DNA of 64,000 bases from Candidatus Aminicenantes bacterium (GCA_050115915.1 JASFPP010000001.1:3116-67115), one strand, 5' to 3'; numbered from the stretch's first letter, positions 2,820 through 64,000 are shown. Numbers and translations are program-made. Notes: a model not told the origin generated them from the letters alone.

Positions 2820-2867
2820 TAGCAAATCCCTAAAAGCAATCTGGCGCACGGGGCCGGGAGCATCCCG

Positions 2868-3084
2868 AAAACCTGATGCTTGCTGCCTGATTGATCCCAT
2901 TAGGGATTCGAAAACAAAATTCCTTCTGGTTTCCCCTGCGAGGAAAATTCGTTCGGACGCGGGCGCTTTCCTCACATTTCCCATTGGGAGATGTCTCCTG
3001 CCCCATAAGCTCTTTTCACGGTTTTCTCCACCACACAATGGGCCCCCCTATTAGTGCAACAAGAATTCATGTCGTCACGGTTTT
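2868..3084 (-). repeat. T1 structured intergenic repeat, copy A (about 217 bp), oriented toward the SGNH hydrolase gene
   Basis: The reverse complement aligns along its length with copy B. It shares the identical 22-mer ATTGTGTGGTGGAGAAAACCGT (plus-strand 3018-3039 as reverse complement) and the blocks ACATCTCCC-N3-GGGAAATGTGAGG, TTTTCCTCGCAGGGGAAA and GTTTTCGAATCC. The termini are inverted (AAAACCGTGACGACATGAATTC ... AAGCATCAGGTTTT). Confidence 0.75.
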
Positions 3085-3139
3085 AGGATCCTAGCCATCG
3101 GGGAATAGGGGGTGTTATCGAAAGGAGCGAGGAAGAAGA

Positions 3140-13590: not shown

Positions 13591-13801
13591 AAACTGTGAC
13601 GGTGATGAATCGCGTCGCGCTTTTGGAAGTTCCAATTGTGTGGTGGAGAAAACCGTATGGAGGGCCGGACGGGCATGGTACATCTCCCCAAGGGAGATGT
13701 GAGGGAGGCCCGGAATCGAGTGAAATTTCCTCGCTGGGGAAATTGAACGTGTTTTCGAAATCAACAATTGGAGCTTTCGGAAAGTCATTCATCACAGTTT
13801 T
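13591..13801 (+). repeat. T1 structured intergenic repeat, copy B (about 211 bp), oriented toward the B12-radical SAM gene
   Basis: Termini AAACTGTGAcggtgATGAAT (13591-) and ATTCATCACAGTTTT (-13801) are inverted repeats with a 5-nt bulge. Core 22-mer at 13635-13656. Perfect 9-bp hairpin ACATCTCCC-caa-GGGAGATGT at 13680-13700. Blocks shared with copies A and D. Confidence 0.8.
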
Positions 13802-13849
13802 GGAAAAGTTAGAGACGCGGAAGGAAAACGTGTGCGGGACATTGAGGTG

Positions 13850-24395: not shown

Positions 24396-25385
24396 TTATT
24401 CGGATGACGGATCTCGTTCAGAGTCAAAGATCTCCCGTACGAAATAGATCCTTTTGTCTACCGACTCGTGGTAGGCGCGGACCATGATCTCTGCCAAAAG
24501 CCCCAGAGTGATGAACTGGATCCCGATAACAATGAGCAATATGGCCAACAGCAGCAAGGGGCGTCCTGAGATGCCCACCTTGAGAATGAGACGCTGATAG
24601 GAGAGGTATAAGCCAATGAGGAATCCGACGATACCGCTGGCCAGCCCGAATACGCCGAATATCTGGAGAGGTCGTGTGGAATAACTCAAGAGAAATTTGA
24701 CTGTGAGAAGGTCGAGGATGACTTTGACGAACCGGAACACCGTGTATTTGGACTTTCCGTGCTTCCTTGGCCGGTGGTTAACTTCAACCTCAGCTATAGA
24801 AACCCCGATATTGCTGGCAATGGCTGGAATGAACCTGTGCAGCTCTCCGTAAAGATTGATGTTTTTGATGACCTCTTTTCGGAAAGCCTTCAGAGTGCAC
24901 CCAAAATCATGAAGCTTGATGTGCGTGATCTTGGAGATAAGCCAATTGGCCATGGCCGAGGGGATGCGACGTGTCAAAAGGCGGTCCTTTCTTTTTTTCC
25001 TCCATCCGCTGACAATATCGTAACCCTTGTGGATCTTTTCGAGAAGAAGAACGAAGTCTTGAGGATCATTCTGAAGGTCTGCATCCAAGGTGATGATCAC
25101 CTCTCCTTTGGCATAATCGAAACCAGCGGAAAGGGCTGCCGTTTGGCCGAAATTTTTTCTCAGCCGGATAACTTTCACCTTGGGATCCTCCTTTTGGATG
25201 CCCCGCAACACCGGAAAAGTCAAATCCCAGCTTCCGTCATCGACAAAAATGATCTCATAGGAGAGGTTCAGTCCTATTGAGGCTTTCGTGATCTCTTCAT
25301 AGAGGTCTGGCAGGTTTTTCTCCTCGTTAAAAACCGGCACTACGATGGAAAGTGCAAGAGGCTCCTTGGGATTCATTGCGGTCAA
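24396..25385 (-). CDS. GT2 polyprenyl-phosphate glycosyltransferase (paralog of 16137-17129)
   Basis: 329 aa. LSIVVPVFNEEKNL and DADLQNDP motifs. It shares the identical peptides RLRKNFGQTAAL and LYGELHRFIPA with the other GT2. TTG start at 25385, with an in-frame ATG at 25376. Confidence 0.85.
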   Translation of the reverse strand: MTAMNPKEPLALSIVVPVFNEEKNLPDLYEEITKASIGLNLSYEIIFVDDGSWDLTFPVLRGIQKEDPKVKVIRLRKNFGQTAALSAGFDYAKGEVIITLDADLQNDPQDFVLLLEKIHKGYDIVSGWRKKRKDRLLTRRIPSAMANWLISKITHIKLHDFGCTLKAFRKEVIKNINLYGELHRFIPAIASNIGVSIAEVEVNHRPRKHGKSKYTVFRFVKVILDLLTVKFLLSYSTRPLQIFGVFGLASGIVGFLIGLYLSYQRLILKVGISGRPLLLLAILLIVIGIQFITLGLLAEIMVRAYHESVDKRIYFVREIFDSERDPSSE

Positions 25386-25611: not shown

Positions 25612-25618
25612 TCCTTCG

Positions 25619-25690
25619 CCTGAATTATTCATAAAATCTGTGGTCAAATTCCTATACAAAAATCATTTCTTATCGATAGCATCTTTTACC
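25619..25690 (-). repeat. T2 repeat, partial tandem copy F2 (terminal palindrome plus degenerate P3 arm)
   Basis: CCTGAATTATTCATAAAA...ATCTTTTACC parallels F1 positions 25417-25494, including a similar loop (AAATTCCTAT..). The second hairpin and distal terminus are missing. Confidence 0.6.
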
Positions 25691-25748: not shown

Positions 25749-26228
25749 ATGTCTGAAAAAAAGATATTAATCGTAGATTACGACGCAAAGAACCTCGAGC
25801 ACATGACAGAGCTTTTTGTCCCGCATAATCTTACTGTCGTCACTGCGAATGATGGACAGATGGCCTACGAGAAGTACCAGGAGGAGAAACCCGATCTGAT
25901 CGTACTCGAGGCCATGTTGCCCAAGCTCCACGGTTTTGATTTGACGCAAAAGATTCATAGCGAAACTAAGGGAAGCGTTCCCATCGTCATAGTGACGGGG
26001 CTTTACAAAGGGGCCCAATACAAGAATGAGGCGCTGCGGTCATTCGGCGCTGCGGACTATTTTGAAAAACCCTTCGATGACAACCAACTGGTCAGTTCTG
26101 TCATGAATCTCTTATCCGATGAGATCGATATCGAAGAGGACCTTCCGGACCCTGACACGGTCCTTTCCTATCTTTCTCAGATGTCCAAAAAAACCGCTTC
26201 TCCTTCAAAAGAGGAAAAAATCTCTTAA
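25749..26228 (+). CDS. Single-domain CheY-like receiver protein with Glu at the phospho-acceptor position (atypical/pseudo-receiver)
   Basis: 159 aa. The receiver fold is KILIVDYDAKN...DLIVLEAMLPKLHGFDL...IVIVTG...YFEKPF. The canonical DxxxLD(acceptor)xxMP reads LEAMLP here. Confidence 0.8.
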   Translation: MSEKKILIVDYDAKNLEHMTELFVPHNLTVVTANDGQMAYEKYQEEKPDLIVLEAMLPKLHGFDLTQKIHSETKGSVPIVIVTGLYKGAQYKNEALRSFGAADYFEKPFDDNQLVSSVMNLLSDEIDIEEDLPDPDTVLSYLSQMSKKTASPSKEEKIS

Positions 26229-28386: not shown

Positions 28387-28542
28387 CGCGGTACGGGATG
28401 TCCTCATTGTTTAATGGAGAAAACCGTTTGAAGGGATAAACGGGCGCGTGGCGTCGCCCATGGGAGGTGCCCCATGTTTGAAGGAAGTTACTTCGCAGGG
28501 GAAAGGGATCGGAATTTCGTTTTCGATATCATACTACAGGGG
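28387..28542 (+). repeat. T1 structured intergenic repeat, copy D (shorter, about 156 bp), oriented toward the atp operon
   Basis: ATTGTTTAATGGAGAAAACCGT (18 of 22 match to the A/B core), CTTCGCAGGGGAAAGG and CGTTTTCGATATCA blocks occur in the same order as in A and B. The termini are degenerate, so the boundaries are approximate. Confidence 0.6.
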
Positions 28543-39671: not shown

Positions 39672-39762
39672 TTCTCAATCTCCAATAGACATTTCTAGGC
39701 TTGGATTATATTTTTTAAGTGCATTTTTGGCAAGTATTTATAGAGAGTAACGAGTTTCACTC

Positions 39763-39825
39763 AAACCGTGAGGACATGAATTCTCGATGACAGTATTGAG
39801 TAACACAGTGTCTTCTGTCACGGTT
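39763..39825 (+). repeat. T1-related mini element, copy C (terminal inverted repeats only, 63 bp hairpin)
   Basis: AAACCGTGAGGACATGAATTC matches the T1-A terminus (AAACCGTGACGACATGAATTC, 20 of 21). The 3' arm TCACGGTT pairs with the 5' AACCGTGA. The internal core is missing. Confidence 0.45.
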
Positions 39826-43138: not shown

Positions 43139-46100
43139 ATGAGCTTAAAATTTCTTGCGGAGACAGATGAGTTCAAGAAATTGAAGTCTGCTCTAGATCA
43201 GGGAGCGAAAGGGTTTCACGTTACAGGAATCGTGGATGCGGCAAAGGCCTATTTTCTTGCAACTTTGCTCTTGGATACAGATAAAAAGGTCGTATTTATC
43301 CGGCCTTCCAGTTTTTCCCTCACCAAGGTTCTGGAGCAATGCCAATTCTTTTTATCGCGCTTTTCTGAAGATCTTTCGATCAGTGTTCTTCCTCCTCTCT
43401 CGGAGAATCCATACGCGGAGGTTCCTCCTTCACTCGGATCAATCTCTTCGCGGATGCGGTTCTTCTACTCCTTGACATACACCGAACCGCGGCTTATCGT
43501 GACCAATCTTCTGGGTCTTCTTAAGCCCTTCCCTCATCCCGAACACATAAAGGGTTTTTTCACCGAGGTCGGTGTGGGTCAGAGGATAAATCGTGACACG
43601 CTGCTCGAGATCCTGACCGAATATGGATACACACAAGAGGACATCATCAATGCGCACGGAGAATATTCTTGGCGGGGTGGGATCGTGGATGTGTACTCAC
43701 CCTGGGAAGCTTTTCCTTTCCGTATCGAATTCAGCGGCAATGAAGTTGTCTCTCTTCGAACGTTCGACCTGTCTTCGCAAAGGTCTAAAACAAAAATCGA
43801 CAGACTCCTCTTCCCCTCACTCCGTGAGTTTGTTGGAAATTCTGTCTTCCTCGAAGAGTGGATCCGATTGGCTCAGCAAGAAGCGGACCAGCGTTTTTTA
43901 AAAGACCTTAAGTCGAAAGCAGAGAATCTCGAAAGAGGAGAAATCTTCCCATCCTTTTCTTTTTTGTCGCTGCTTCACAGTGAGCGTTTCTCCACATACC
44001 AGGCCTACCTCAAGGATTATCTTTTTATTATCGATAATCCTGAGGATGTCACCAAAGACCGGGAAGAGACCTATGCGGAACTCGAGGAACAGTTCCATGA
44101 GATATCTGCTCAAGGGAAGTATGCTCTTTCCCCCGCAAAGATTTATCCCCCGGCCTTGTGGGATCTAATAAGGGAGAACGCCATTAAACTGGATGAGCTG
44201 GCAACGCCGGATAACGGGCAGGCGTTTCGTTTTCCTTTTCAATCCACCACGCGGTTTGCCAATAAGATCCCGTTCTTCTTGAAGTACATGAAAAAACTCC
44301 AAAAGGAAAGGGAAAGAAGTTATGTTTTTCTGGCCAATGAAGGTTTGCGTCAGAAATTCGCCGGCCTGCTCTCCCAGCACATGATCCCCTTTGTGAAGGC
44401 CGAAGATCCTTTGGCCTCTCCTCGCGAAGGAGAAGTGAGCCTTTTTATCGGAGACCTCGAGCGAGGATTCCGTTATCCCGGAGAGAAGATCTCCTTCTTT
44501 TCTGAAAAGGATATTTTCACCGAGGAAAAAGTTCTAATCAGTCGTCCTCGGGTCAGAGCGTTTGTCTCCCACTTCCAGGATCTCAAAGCGGGGGATTTTG
44601 TGGTTCATACGGATTATGGGATCGGAATCTTTACCGGTTTGATCAAGCTCAGTGTCGATAAGAGGAAGAGAGAATTTATTGAAATTCACTACAAGGATGA
44701 GGATAAACTGTTCGTTCCGGTCGAGGACCTTAACCTCGTCCAAAAATATGCCCAGTTGGGAACATCTGCCCCGAGCCTGAACAAGCTGGGGACGCCTCAG
44801 TGGGAAAGGATAAAAGCTCGAACAAAAAAGGCCATAGAAACCATGGCCAAAGAGCTCCTCGAGCTCTATGCCAGGCGGAAGGCGCTCGAGGGATTCAGCT
44901 ATAGCCAGGGCGGGGAGTGGCTCTCTGATTTCGAGAAAACTTTCGAGTTTCAAGAAACCGAAGATCAACTCAGAGCGATCCAAGAGATCATGATGGACAT
45001 GGAATCCGAATCTCCGATGGACCGCCTGCTCTGTGGGGATGTGGGATACGGCAAGACAGAAGTGGCCATAAGAGCGTCCTTCAAGGCCGTTATGGATGGG
45101 AAGCAGGTGGCTGTTCTCTGCCCGACAACAGTTTTGGCCAGCCAACACCACAAAACCTTCCAGACGAGAATGCTGCTCTTCCCCGTTCGGGTGGAGAGCC
45201 TCACAAGGCTCCAAAGTCCGACAAAGCAAAAAAAAGTCCTTGCGGACCTCGAAAAAGGATTGGCCGATATCGTCATCGGCACTCACCGTCTCCTCTCCAA
45301 GGATGTGGCGTTCCGAGATCTCGGATTGTTGGTCGTCGACGAGGAGCAAAGGTTTGGTGTCAGCCACAAAGAGAGGATCAAAACTTTAAAAAGCAATATC
45401 GATGTATTGACCATGACTGCCACTCCGATCCCGCGGACCTTGAACCTCTCCCTCTCCGGGTTGAGGGACATCAGTTTGATCGAGACGGCACCCAAAGACC
45501 GGCTGGCGATCCATACGGTTGTCACCACCTTTCGCTCGAGTCTTATCGTATCAGCCATTAGGAAAGAGTTGGGCAGGGGAGGACAGGTGTACTTCATCCA
45601 CAATAAGATCGACGATATCGACACCATTGCCCGCACGATCGAAAAATGGGTGCCGCAAGCTAAAATTGTTACCATTCACGGACAAATGCCAAGCACAAAG
45701 CTCGAGCGCCGGATGGTTGATTTTATCGAGCACAAGTATAATGTCCTCGTTTCAACAACGATCATAGAGAACGGGATCGATATCCCCCTCGTCAACACTC
45801 TCATCGTGAACCGGGCAGACCGATTTGGTCTGGCACAGCTCTACCAGCTGAGAGGAAGAGTAGGGAGGTCATCGCGGCAAGCCATGGCCTACTTTCTGGT
45901 CCCTCCATTCACAGAGCTGACACCTGTGGCCAAAGAGAGGTTGAAGGCCCTGCAGGAATTTACAGAACTGGGTTCCGGCTTCCGCCTCGCAGCTAAAGAT
46001 TTGGAGATCAGGGGGGCAGGAAATTTTCTGGGTTCTGAACAGCATGGGTACATGGAAGCCGTAGGGTTTAACTACTACATGAGTCTTCTCGAGAAGACTG

Positions 46101-47587: not shown

Positions 47588-48545
47588 GATTATCGGAATT
47601 TTCTTAGTTCTTGTGGCTGCCGTAGGGTTGTTCGGGCAGGATATAGTCGAGGCGATCGTAGCTGTTGTCAATGACGATATCATCACTCTTTCTGAATACA
47701 AGCAAGAATATAACTCCCGGATGAGGATGTTGAGAGCGCAACTTCAGGGAGAAGAGTTGATTGAACAGCAGGAGATCATGAAAAATAACCTCCTGGAATC
47801 TTTGATAACGGATAAACTCCTTCTCCAAGAAGCGAGAAAGCTCGGCCTTAATGTCACAGAGCAAATGAGGATGACACTCGATAATATCAAGAGAGAAAAT
47901 AACCTGACATCTGATGAACAACTCAAAAGAGCCCTCGCCCAGCAGGGCATAGCTTATGAGGATTTTTTGAACCAGATGGAACAGAATATGCTGAAACAGA
48001 ACATCATTTTTAATAAGGTGGGGAGCAAAATTGTGATCGACGACTCAGAGATCGTGAGCTATTACAAGGTCCATCAGGAGGATTTTATCGAGCCTATCGA
48101 GTACACTCTCAAAATGATCTACATCGCCGGCGAGGGGAAAAGCTCTGAGGAGATTGAAAGCAAAAAGGGGGAGATCGACAACAGGCTCGACACGAATGGG
48201 GATTTCGGTCAGGTGGCGGGGGAGTTTTCCGAAGGCCCGGAAAAAGATGCACAGGGAGACCTGGGAAGCTACAAAGAGGGAGAATTACAGAAGGAGCTGG
48301 AACAAGCCGTAGAAAATCTGGAGGTGGATGCTGTAACGTCCTGGTTGAACATGCAGGGAGGATGGGTCAGGTTAAAACTTGTGGGGAAAAAAGACAGGCG
48401 CCTGAAAGAGTTTCAAGATGTCCGCAAAGAAATCGAAGGGATAATCTTCGAAGAAAGGCAGCAGGAAGAGTTGGATAAATATCTGCGTGATATCCGGTCT
48501 AAGAGTTATATTAAGGTTCTGATAGGCGACCCTTCCATCGATTGA
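47565..48545 (+). CDS. SurA-like periplasmic chaperone with degenerate parvulin domain
   Basis: 326 aa with a signal peptide. SurA N-terminal signature IVAVVNDDIITLSEY. The C-terminal parvulin-like segment lacks the GYH motif (GGWVRLKL). Confidence 0.75.
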   Translation: MIMMRANKIIGIFLVLVAAVGLFGQDIVEAIVAVVNDDIITLSEYKQEYNSRMRMLRAQLQGEELIEQQEIMKNNLLESLITDKLLLQEARKLGLNVTEQMRMTLDNIKRENNLTSDEQLKRALAQQGIAYEDFLNQMEQNMLKQNIIFNKVGSKIVIDDSEIVSYYKVHQEDFIEPIEYTLKMIYIAGEGKSSEEIESKKGEIDNRLDTNGDFGQVAGEFSEGPEKDAQGDLGSYKEGELQKELEQAVENLEVDAVTSWLNMQGGWVRLKLVGKKDRRLKEFQDVRKEIEGIIFEERQQEELDKYLRDIRSKSYIKVLIGDPSID

Positions 48546-48568
48546 TGTGAATTATTCATCTCATTATT

Positions 48569-62969: not shown

Positions 62970-63668
62970 GTGACTGATTCAGCTAGAAGATACAGAGTGG
63001 TGGAGGCGTTCCAGCGGATCCCTTCGCTTGTCCATGGTTTCGGGACCCGATATTGGGGGGAGGACGGTTTGAATTCATGTCCGGAGCTGGCCGGCTTTCG
63101 CCATGTTTCCCTCTGTCAGACTCACTCCGATATCGTCCACACCATCACAAGATATCCCCATGATAAGATGGAGGGGGATGCGCTCGTAACAGACCGTCCG
63201 GGCATCCTCCTCAACATAAAGACCGCCGATTGCCTTCCTGTGTTGGTCGTGGATCCTCAAAGGAGAGTTGTCGCTGCGGTCCATTGTGGTTGGAGAGGAA
63301 CCCTGAAGAACGTCATCGCTGAAACGCTCCGGACGATCATACAGAATTTTGGCAGCGACGTGTCATCTCTTCGTGTTGCCCTAGGGCCTTGTATAGACAA
63401 GTCTTGCTATGAGGTTGGGGAGGATGTGAGAGAACGATTTGAACGCTACGGAATTTCCAATGGAAATTTTAACCGCCATCCTTTCAAACGAGAGAAATAT
63501 TTATTCGATCTCAGAGGGACTAATCGGGCTCAGATCCTCGAGATGGGTGTCCCTCGAGAACAAATTTTTTCGGTTGACCTCTGCACGTACTGTGAAAAGG
63601 ACCTGTTCTCCTACAGAAGAGATAAGGCCCATGCAGGACGATTGATCAACTTTATTGGCCTATCGTAA
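62970..63668 (+). CDS. pgeF: Peptidoglycan editing factor PgeF (YfiH/DUF152, laccase-domain family)
   Basis: 232 aa. SLVHGFGTR, QTHSD and AAVHCGWRGT motifs. GTG start. Confidence 0.9.
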   Translation: MTDSARRYRVVEAFQRIPSLVHGFGTRYWGEDGLNSCPELAGFRHVSLCQTHSDIVHTITRYPHDKMEGDALVTDRPGILLNIKTADCLPVLVVDPQRRVVAAVHCGWRGTLKNVIAETLRTIIQNFGSDVSSLRVALGPCIDKSCYEVGEDVRERFERYGISNGNFNRHPFKREKYLFDLRGTNRAQILEMGVPREQIFSVDLCTYCEKDLFSYRRDKAHAGRLINFIGLS

Positions 63669-63670
63669 TC

Positions 63671-63899
63671 TCCTGGATTATTCACGAGCCGAGGCCAACC
63701 CACCCCACCCATTCACAAAGGTAGAGGCAGTGGCTTCCGAAGCAGCAGTGAACTACCACGAGGGGGCTACAACGAAGGCTTTGTAGTGAGATCGGTTCGC
63801 CCGAAGGGTAAAAGAAGCTAACAACAGGATGGGGAGTTTTCCTTTCAGATAAGTCTTTCTTAAATATATTTGTTAGCTTCTTTTATGATTAATTCAGGA
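63671..63899 (+). repeat. T2 structured intergenic repeat, full copy E (about 229 bp), oriented toward the gene starting at 63950
   Basis: The termini CCTGGATTATTCA / TGATTAATTCAGG pair (12 of 13 including 1 G-U). Perfect 14-bp hairpin AAAAGAAGCTAACA (63810-63823) / TGTTAGCTTCTTTT (63871-63884). Basal stem CGAGCCGA (63685-63692) / TCGGTTCG (63792-63799). Junction sequences are conserved with copy F1. Confidence 0.75.
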
Positions 63900-63920
63900 T
63901 CAACAGCTTTGTTGATTTTT
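63899..63920 (+). terminator. Weak terminator-like hairpin immediately after T2-E
   Basis: ATCAACA-gctt-TGTTGAT followed by TTTT. The stem is only 7 bp and AU-rich. Confidence 0.3.
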
Positions 63921-64000
63921 AAGGTATTTTTTCTTATCCTAGGGCTACTATGAAAAACACTTATTCAGAGATTGTGCTGCCGGATTTTCCGTTGTTTAAA

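Follow-up and report, generated by a model that had tools for sequence, protein, structure and literature searches.

The window analysed here, a 64,000-nucleotide stretch of a Candidatus Aminicenantes genome (GCA_050115915.1, JASFPP010000001.1:3116-67115), holds copies of a short repeat, T2, which a preliminary description had presented as a structured RNA. We conclude that T2 is probably a family of non-autonomous DNA transposons, or miniature inverted-repeat transposable elements (MITEs), specific to the uncultivated phylum Candidatus Aminicenantes, and that the window carries two full copies, E and F1, and a truncated tandem partial copy, F2. The family was previously undescribed and adds a new case to a familiar type of element without representing a novel type of RNA gene; it is a MITE whose inner module, P2, is under strand-specific structural constraint. 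We base this on what was observed of its anatomy, copy number, terminal inverted repeats (TIRs), target-site duplications (TSDs), covariation and strand bias. Of the structured-RNA claim, the conserved single-strand fold, the covariation, the strand-specific G-U pairs and the lack of an Rfam match all stood, but an RNA gene in place of a MITE did not, in view of the TIRs, the 4-bp TSD, the hundreds of copies in both orientations and the deletion derivatives. The MITE alternative, which the preliminary description had itself named, was borne out by TIRs, TSD, dispersal and remnants.

T2 is bounded by TIRs of 13 bp, CCTGRATTATTCA ... TGAATAATTCAGG. In 16 of 44 solo copies, a perfect direct repeat of 4 bp adjoined the outer ends of the TIRs, compared with 3.1 copies on average and at most 10 in 2000 permutations; none of the 44 had a 5-bp flanking repeat. 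The duplicated 4-mers were CTAA (six copies), TTAG (three), TTAA, CTAG, TTAC, ATAA, TAAA, TTTA and AAAT, a target of the YTAR type. Almost all copies (101 of 105) were intergenic, with no overlap with an open reading frame (ORF) of 100 amino acids or more, and with a convergent downstream gene the ORF end fell within -7 to +6 nt of the element in 34 of 39 cases. The target 4-mers contain stop codons, which, after selection, would explain why copies sit this tightly against gene ends. Internal-deletion forms were found at four loci (L043, L168, L188 and L195; here and below, numbers with the prefix L denote individual loci), as were 15-bp solo-TIR remnants, CCTGGATTATTCAGG, in L060 (upstream of the copy at 621-819), L025 (122-136), L021 (4559-4573) and L041 (556-570). 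The remnant is a palindrome in which the left TIR is joined to the terminal bases of the right end, and two of these sites have an identical 4-mer on both sides (CTAA in L060, ATAA in L025). The solo-TIR palindromes look like remnants of an interior deletion across the hairpin of the element.

The orientation of T2 relative to genes was examined for 179 copies. Same-strand and opposite-strand genes numbered 89 and 73 upstream (p=0.24) and 81 and 67 downstream (p=0.29). Co-directional contexts were divided into 43 sense and 27 antisense (p=0.07), and among the 132 copies for which both neighbours were called, 27 had the two on the opposite strand. The neighbouring genes were functionally heterogeneous across copies. 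That the element is read in the sense direction of the downstream gene, as had been pointed out before, holds at the E and F1 loci but not family-wide, and the direction shared by these two loci is a coincidence.

The family is large and confined to one lineage. An exact-pattern scan of one genome per species, covering 185,579 species, gave 97 loci, all of which, except for two chance matches (L015 and L072), belonged to Candidatus Aminicenantes / Acidobacteriota metagenome-assembled genomes (MAGs), and the six best-sampled MAGs held about 9-20 exact-pattern copies each. A profile search (nhmmer) of the scanned loci reported 105 full and about 29 partial copies; the same type of search in the window found only E, F1 and F2. 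Metagenome contigs, scanned with a different part of the element as the query, added at least 74 full copies among at least 120 loci listed. Family members measured 190-330 nt. Many of the carrier MAGs (L002-L004, L008-L012 and others) are labelled 'uncultured Eubacteriales' or 'Pirellulales'; their syntenic flanks are 80-97% identical to Aminicenantes MAGs, and the labels look wrong. MAGs CAZXJE01 and JBATYS01 have contigs that match the DNA of the window itself at ~81-85% identity. Rfam gave no match in the whole window at the gathering threshold, and around E and F1 at permissive E-values it gave only chance-level matches (E-value at least 1.2); the HEARO and omega-RNA models matched neither in the whole window nor, permissively, around E and F1. 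Blastn of F1 against plasmid and phage collections had no match, and our literature searches on Aminicenantes and MITEs and on the 12-mer ATTATTCACGAG found nothing relevant. For annotation, this means hundreds of intergenic copies per genome that would otherwise be called candidate noncoding RNAs or assembly breakpoints.

Folding of both full copies confirmed the P1/P2/P3 fold proposed before for E and F1 and placed it in one four-way junction, whose four helices meet without any unpaired nucleotides between them. In both copies, P1 is formed by the paired termini, GGAUUAUUCA / UGAWUAAUUC; CGAGYYGA / UCRRYUCG closes P2, which forms a long, irregular hairpin; next come a mini hairpin of 3 bp, CCC-NNN-GGG, and P3, a hairpin with the stem UAAAAGA... 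/ ...UCUUUUA. The P3 stem of E is a perfect 14 bp, as had been noted.

Covariation was assessed on an alignment of 23 non-redundant copies of ~192 nt, F1 included. RNAalifold reported 58 pairs; compensatory double changes were present in 23. Standard pairs occupied 96.9% of the cells, compared with 89.5% after shuffling, and none of 500 shuffles reached the observed value; in a control where the partners were slid by 1-3 columns, only 33-43% of the cells were paired. Over this alignment and the metagenome set described below, unpaired cells amounted to only 3-5% at a mean column divergence of ~22%, and P1 pairs were kept in 97-98%. The covariance-model check that had been suggested for T2 came out in its favour: a model built without E recovered E at 113.8 bits (E-value 8.5e-24), and a search of the window found, besides E, only F1 (196.6 bits) and F2. 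The covariance model also found 61 copies among the listed metagenome loci, which had been retrieved via an unrelated part of the element. In this set 94.9% of the cells were paired and 38 of the 58 pairs showed double changes, in an alignment that is biased towards the structure because it was fitted to the covariance model. Within a single P2 subfamily the helix base varied (UU/AG, UC/GG, CC/GG, CU/AG) and pairing was always kept. Mini-hairpin loops were mostly G-N-A triloops closed by C-G, the last triloop base being preset by the exact-pattern search.

The two strands of T2 are not equivalent. The sense strand had the lower minimum free energy (MFE) in 87 of 89 distinct copies, with a mean of -79.1 compared with -57.7 kcal/mol (Wilcoxon p=3e-16). 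The argument that G-U pairs reveal the orientation of the element is therefore valid for the family but not for E itself, whose strands are equal (MFE -71.8 and -71.9); E lacks the asymmetry because a 16-nt C-rich insert interrupts its P2. The 23-copy alignment contained 98 G-U and 13 A-C cells, and the excess was concentrated in P2 (83 versus 9) and in one P1 position (11 versus 1), whereas P3 was symmetric (2 versus 2). Some G-U positions were conserved, for example columns 23:100 in 21 of the 23 sequences, and others lay along GC-GU-AU paths. The number of G-U pairs given for the two window copies in the preliminary description was too low, as the MFE folds contain nine in E and five in F1. 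Pairing within the P2 module is maintained on a single strand, which makes T2 a clean case, for MITE biology, of an inner module under strand-specific structural selection.

The module can be told apart from the rest of the element by comparison with a short form, which has the same ends and only P3 inside (L031 4785-4918, L063 1857-2001, L070 and L006) and in which the TIR extends to ~26 bp, CCTGRAYTATTCATAAAAAATGYCGAT. P1 and P3 make up a plain, near-palindromic backbone, and from the existence of the short form it follows that the long form is this backbone plus a module of ~115 nt comprising P2 and the mini hairpin. The module lies exactly between the 5′ strand of P1 and the 5′ strand of P3, and it is this placement at the P1/P3 boundary that leaves the four-way junction without linker nucleotides. 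P2 was not found outside the T2 backbone in the ~1.3 Mb of Aminicenantes sequence sampled, barring copies cut by contig ends, and P2 as an independent element was rejected for lack of any P2 match outside T2 copies. There are two main P2 subfamilies that differ by compensated helices, such as CUGCAAAG/CUUUGUAG in one and CUGCA-GA-UGC/GCA-GA-UGCAG, with tandem G-A, in the other; the unpaired motifs GAGGC, GAAG, AACGAAG and GAGAUC are invariant in both.

P2 in turn hosts smaller sequences. The 17-mer GGGTTAGGTTGGGTCGG or its complement was present inside the P2 of 18 copies, in either orientation and at no fewer than four different positions (sites include L021 275-291; L022 94-110, 2387-2403 and 44-60; L031 1996-2012; L075 3561-3577; and L084 6264-6280), and once outside any T2 copy (L053 5992-6008). 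At two P2 positions it appears to replace a single T. The insert of E, CCAACCCACCCCACCC, is a variant of this 17-mer (CCGACCCAACCTAACCC / GGGTTAGGTTGGGTCGG), and the 16-17-nt G-rich sequence behaves like a tiny nested insertion. Some P3 loops (L010, L020 and L067; also L175) contain one or two G+C-rich palindromes, GGGGACTGTCCCC, followed by a T-run, which is a terminator-like hairpin nested in the MITE.

Orthologous loci provided a view of how copies change. In MAG CAZXJE01, the locus orthologous to F1 (L084) shows ~85% conservation of the flanks and of P3, and the element there has a P2 of the other subfamily, with the G-rich insert, and no F2. In three further orthologous sets the element was retained across MAGs at a flank identity of 80-97%, mostly 85-95%, and what differed was the entire type of P3 or of P2, with compensation in the stems. 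Such whole-module differences suggest replacement or gene conversion among copies; point-wise evolution in situ is less likely. In three MAGs (L018, L025 and L066) orthologous copies of T2 stop 4-6 nt short of a same-strand tRNA gene, upstream of its 5′ end (GGAGAGGTGGCCGAGTGGTTGAA...), and there the element may be part of the tRNA precursor.

In about a third of the copies (roughly 25-30 of 88), the 3′ end also occurred ahead of the element as a direct repeat of 13-100 nt, which shares private variants with the 3′ end of the same copy. This repeat is followed by a conserved linker of ~9 nt, with the consensus GGNGRAAGAT, and then by GGATTATTCA. The pair F2-F1 is one such partial tandem, or '1.x-mer', and others were seen in L057, L058, L062, L070, L091 and L014, among further loci. 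We rejected the upstream direct repeat as the true left end, since no TSD was found for this class at any offset. Partial tandems could have originated as tandem dimers, as integrated end-to-end junctions or as a distinct subfamily.

As for how the element moves, a DDE-type transposase supplied in trans would bind the TIRs, insert the element into a YTAR-like target (CTAA, TTAG, TTAA, CTAG) and duplicate these 4 bp. With less certainty, and by analogy with the bcr1 repeats of the Bacillus cereus group, P2 might act as RNA when neighbouring transcription reads through the element, where it could be a structure that stabilises or processes mRNA ends, as proposed for bcr1, ERIC and Correia elements. 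Judging from this analogy, a role on read-through transcripts would be the likeliest reason for the constraint on P2; less probably, the module would serve the propagation of the element itself as folded single-stranded DNA. For the evolution of Aminicenantes, copies that lie on stop codons or beside ribosome-binding sites and tRNA genes can change transcript ends.

Several observations weigh against a MITE moved in this way. No autonomous element with T2 TIRs was found in the ~1.3 Mb of Aminicenantes sequence. The preliminary description had named clear TSDs together with an autonomous partner encoding a transposase as evidence against an RNA; the TSD was found and the partner was not. All-against-all clustering of 485 ORFs around copies revealed no transposase-like paralogue family; the 52 candidates for orphan TIRs followed by long ORFs were almost all housekeeping genes; inverted TIR pairs 0.6-4 kb apart with equal 4-mers were only coincidences with T2 ends; and a 2.3-kb TIR-bounded stretch in L185 contained no long ORF. 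The only transposase next to a T2-type end, in L190, belongs to an element with unrelated TIRs. There, a separate insertion sequence (IS) at 478-2546 with 34-bp TIRs (AACACCGATTTCCACAGT..TTTTAAGCGTCAT) is inserted ~90 nt inside the T2-type end and encodes, at 712-2508, a 598-amino-acid DDE transposase with an N-terminal helix-turn-helix, which is distantly IS1380-like and falls below the NCBIfam and Pfam cut-offs. Being bounded by its own 34-bp TIRs, it marks a different IS beside a T2-type end, and we rejected it as the partner of T2. Furthermore, just one comparison with an unoccupied site was obtained, and it is imperfect: the site occupied by a full copy in MAG JBATYS01 (L065 960-1155) corresponds to window positions 48523-48563 (minus strand), which hold only CTAGAATAAT-GAG-ATGAATAATTCAC and represent either an unoccupied site or a decayed remnant. 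The partial-tandem class is not explained by a simple cut-and-paste model, and P2 as a read-through RNA has to be reconciled with a near-random orientation, including the 27 of 132 copies with both neighbours on the opposite strand.

The view that T2 is a free-standing structured RNA, either a small-RNA gene or a cis-regulatory 5′ leader in the sense of the downstream gene, with the repeats being paralogous RNA genes, draws on the strong covariation and the G-U strand asymmetry, on the conserved unpaired purine-rich loops of P2, on a ribosome-binding site and start codon 4-30 nt past the 3′ end in many copies and on the copies that abut a tRNA gene (L018, L025). We regard it as very improbable, given the TIRs and 4-bp TSD, the mixed strands of the neighbours (81 versus 67 downstream, 89 versus 73 upstream), the functionally unrelated flanking genes, the deletion derivatives and remnants, and the fact that P2 never occurs outside the TIR backbone. 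There is also no promoter-like site upstream of E, and F2 and F1 together are bracketed by the promoter-like sites of two divergent genes, with that of the GT2 gene downstream of F1. The same downstream counts and the lack of a recurrent gene class led us to reject a 5′ leader or riboswitch-like element, and the position of the GT2 promoter-like site speaks against a leader at F1 in particular. P3 was rejected as a terminator, as a scan of the E and F loci showed no terminator-like site and its loops span 20-80 nt. We agree with the preliminary description that retron, omega-RNA and attC explanations have no support. A retron RNA adjoins a reverse transcriptase gene and is usually single-copy; the T2 copies number in the hundreds, and the genes flanking those in the window are not reverse transcriptases. 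IS200/IS605-derived elements (PATE, omega-RNA) lack TIRs and TSD, have subterminal hairpins, insert 3′ of a fixed tetra- or pentanucleotide and are associated with TnpA(Y1), TnpB or IscB; T2 has TIRs and a 4-bp TSD, and the ORFs near copies included no recurrent transposase-like paralogue. Integron attC sites carry boxes R''/L''...L'/R' with the consensus RYYYAAC...GTTRRRY and form arrays beside intI, each site with a single cassette ORF; T2 has the ends CCTGRATTATTCA, a P2 base of CGAG/CUCG and no R-box consensus, and its copies are dispersed singly between housekeeping genes.

A strand-specific structure alongside near-random orientation to genes would also be expected if the fold were used as single-stranded DNA in transposition or replication (through a single-strand circle, a rolling-circle or a hairpin-guided process), with selection blind to host transcription. 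The perfect four-way junction without linker nucleotides fits this, as does the right-end / ~9-nt linker / left-end junction of the '1.x-mers', which resembles the junction of a circle with abutted ends. A G-N-A triloop closed by C-G is a very stable DNA motif, and the mini hairpins have such loops, but this argument is weak because the search pattern itself fixed the last triloop base. TIRs combined with a TSD that is always 4 bp long are characteristic of double-strand DDE transposition, and HUH single-strand transposons (IS200/IS605, IS91) make neither TIRs nor TSD; no HUH gene was seen among the ORFs surrounding copies. A single-stranded-DNA fold seems to us unlikely. Less credible still is that the P2 fold is a relic, captured once from a functional RNA or from the leader of a transposase gene, in which a few master copies are selected and the dispersed copies decay neutrally. 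The existence of two main P2 subfamilies does explain many of the double changes, what distinguishes orthologous copies is the swap of whole modules, suggestive of replacement or gene conversion, and some copies are clearly decayed (the F2 stem, the E insert). A relic is hard to square, however, with the many paired helix-base combinations within one subfamily, with only 3-5% unpaired cells at the observed divergence and with the avoidance of A-C intermediates in P2 (9 versus 83 G-U); neither a master RNA locus nor a standalone P2 was found in the sampled sequence. We also considered, as an unlikely possibility, that P2, a hairpin of ~100 nt with conserved GAGGC, AACGAAG and GAAG loops, a conserved G-U and a neighbouring mini hairpin, represents a new class of structured RNA, for example a protein-binding or catalytic one, that was captured by a MITE, spread to hundreds of sites per genome and is used in trans or in cis by the host or by the element, the '1.x-mers' reflecting an unusual mode of propagation via a circular or multimeric intermediate. 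The more than 170 natural variants of T2 offer a test set for discriminating between selection on RNA and on single-stranded DNA.

The features of T2 match the definition of a MITE (Delihas, 2011; PMC3184786), and its closest precedent is bcr1 of the B. cereus group (group A interspersed repeats), which has direct repeats and is transcribed into an RNA whose cruciform-like shape is preserved through compensatory changes (PMC3184786). T2 and bcr1 alike are non-coding repeats of ~155-230 nt that are dispersed within a single lineage and flanked by short direct repeats; in each, compensatory changes on one strand maintain a cruciform-like multi-stem fold, and individual copies differ in how intact their structure is (PMC3184786). 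They differ in the TSD, which is 5 bp in bcr1 and of the 4-bp YTAR type in T2, and in the fold, with two stem-loops in bcr1 and a four-way junction in T2; T2 is modular, with a short backbone and the P2 insert; and transcription was shown for bcr1, whereas T2 is known from sequence alone. A sequence relationship is not evident, the two having been set apart without direct sequence comparison. T2 shares with the classical bacterial MITEs (Correia/NEMIS, ERIC, RUP, Nezha and Chunjie) the TIRs, TSD, small size, lack of a transposase, intergenic multi-copy occurrence and potential for long stem-loops at the RNA level (PMC3184786). Unlike T2, classical MITEs mostly form one long hairpin from the two halves of the element; the inner module of T2 is asymmetric, with conserved internal loops, a strong G-U strand bias and a nested 16-17-nt insert.

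The TIR of T2, CCTGGATTATTCAC (CCTAGATTATTCAT in L031), matches the left inverted repeat of ISEcp1 of the IS1380 family, CCTAGATTCTACGT, at 9-10 of 14 positions, and both elements have ends that start with CC and short AT-rich target duplications, which are 5 bp in ISEcp1 and exactly 4 bp in T2. No IS1380-type element with T2 ends was found in the ~1.3 Mb, where the sole IS1380-like transposase, that of L190, has other TIRs, and an IS1380-family source of the mobilising transposase, as this sequence likeness would suggest, is only a lead. REP/BIME and REPIN sequences are, like T2, abundant extragenic palindromic repeats near gene ends that can form tandem arrays with conserved linkers, but REPs are G+C-rich, ~35 nt long, without TIR or TSD and tied to RAYT (an HUH protein), whereas T2 is ~200 nt long and has both TIR and TSD. 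No RAYT-like gene was seen near T2 copies.

Copy E (63672-63898, plus strand; 227 nt) is a full copy with a P2 of subfamily A; it is flanked by a Cu-oxidase_4 (YfiH/PgeF-type) gene, which ends with TAA at 63666-63668, and by an ATG at 63951. Its left TIR, CCTGGATTATTCA, forms the 5′ strand of P1 (63672-63684) and is followed by the P2 module with its long irregular hairpin (63685-63799, base CGAGCCGA/TCGGTTCG), the mini hairpin CCC-GAA-GGG (63800-63808), the P3 hairpin TAAAAGAAGCTAACA ... TGTTAGCTTCTTTTA with an AT-rich loop (63809-63885) and the right TIR, TGATTAATTCAGG, which forms the 3′ strand of P1 (63886-63898). The C-rich insert is nested in the 5′ side of P2 (63695-63710) and stands out as an insertion relative to the covariance model in the cmsearch alignment. 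The flanking 4-mers, ATCT (63668-63671) and ATCA (63899-63902), agree at three of four positions and constitute a degenerate TSD, of which the left one overlaps the final base of the upstream stop codon.

Copy F1 (25611-25419, minus strand; 193 nt) is a full copy with a P2 of subfamily B and lies between a response-regulator gene (25749-26228, plus strand) and a GT2 glycosyltransferase gene (ATG at 25376, minus strand). It consists of the P1 5′ strand (25611-25601), P2 (25600-25502), the mini hairpin (25501-25493), P3 (25492-25430) and the P1 3′ strand (25429-25419). Directly upstream, F2 (25690-25618, minus strand) is 5′-truncated and comprises only a P3 with a decayed stem, 84-86% identical to the P3 of F1, and the 3′ TIR; the F2-F1 linker, gcgaagga (25612-25619, minus strand), is an instance of the recurrent RRAAGAT-type linker of partial-tandem copies. 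The shared blocks reported for E and F1 were located as described, GGATTATTCACGAG occurring exactly twice in the window, at 63675-63688 (plus) and 25610-25597 (minus), and the 3′ block CTTTTATGAWTAATTCAG at 63880-63897 (plus) and 25435-25418 (minus); a third occurrence of the latter, with one mismatch, at 25637-25620 is part of F2. The statement that the sequences between the blocks are unrelated did not hold, as E and F1 are homologous throughout, with 66% identity overall and 57% in P2; they seem unrelated because they carry different P2 subfamilies and because E has the 16-nt insert. Genes flanking copies in the window encode Cu-oxidase_4 (YfiH/PgeF-like), GT2, GT1, a response regulator, AccD and a radical SAM protein.

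The window also contains a second, unrelated dispersed repeat of ~170-220 nt, at 2862-3084, 13629-13804 and 28387-28526 (also 45499-45529), which is present as well in the Aminicenantes loci L021, L024, L074 and L089. In addition, two 30-nt sequences at 3057-3086 and 39760-39789, 36.7 kb apart, form an inverted repeat pair with 87% complementarity and may represent another small repeat family.

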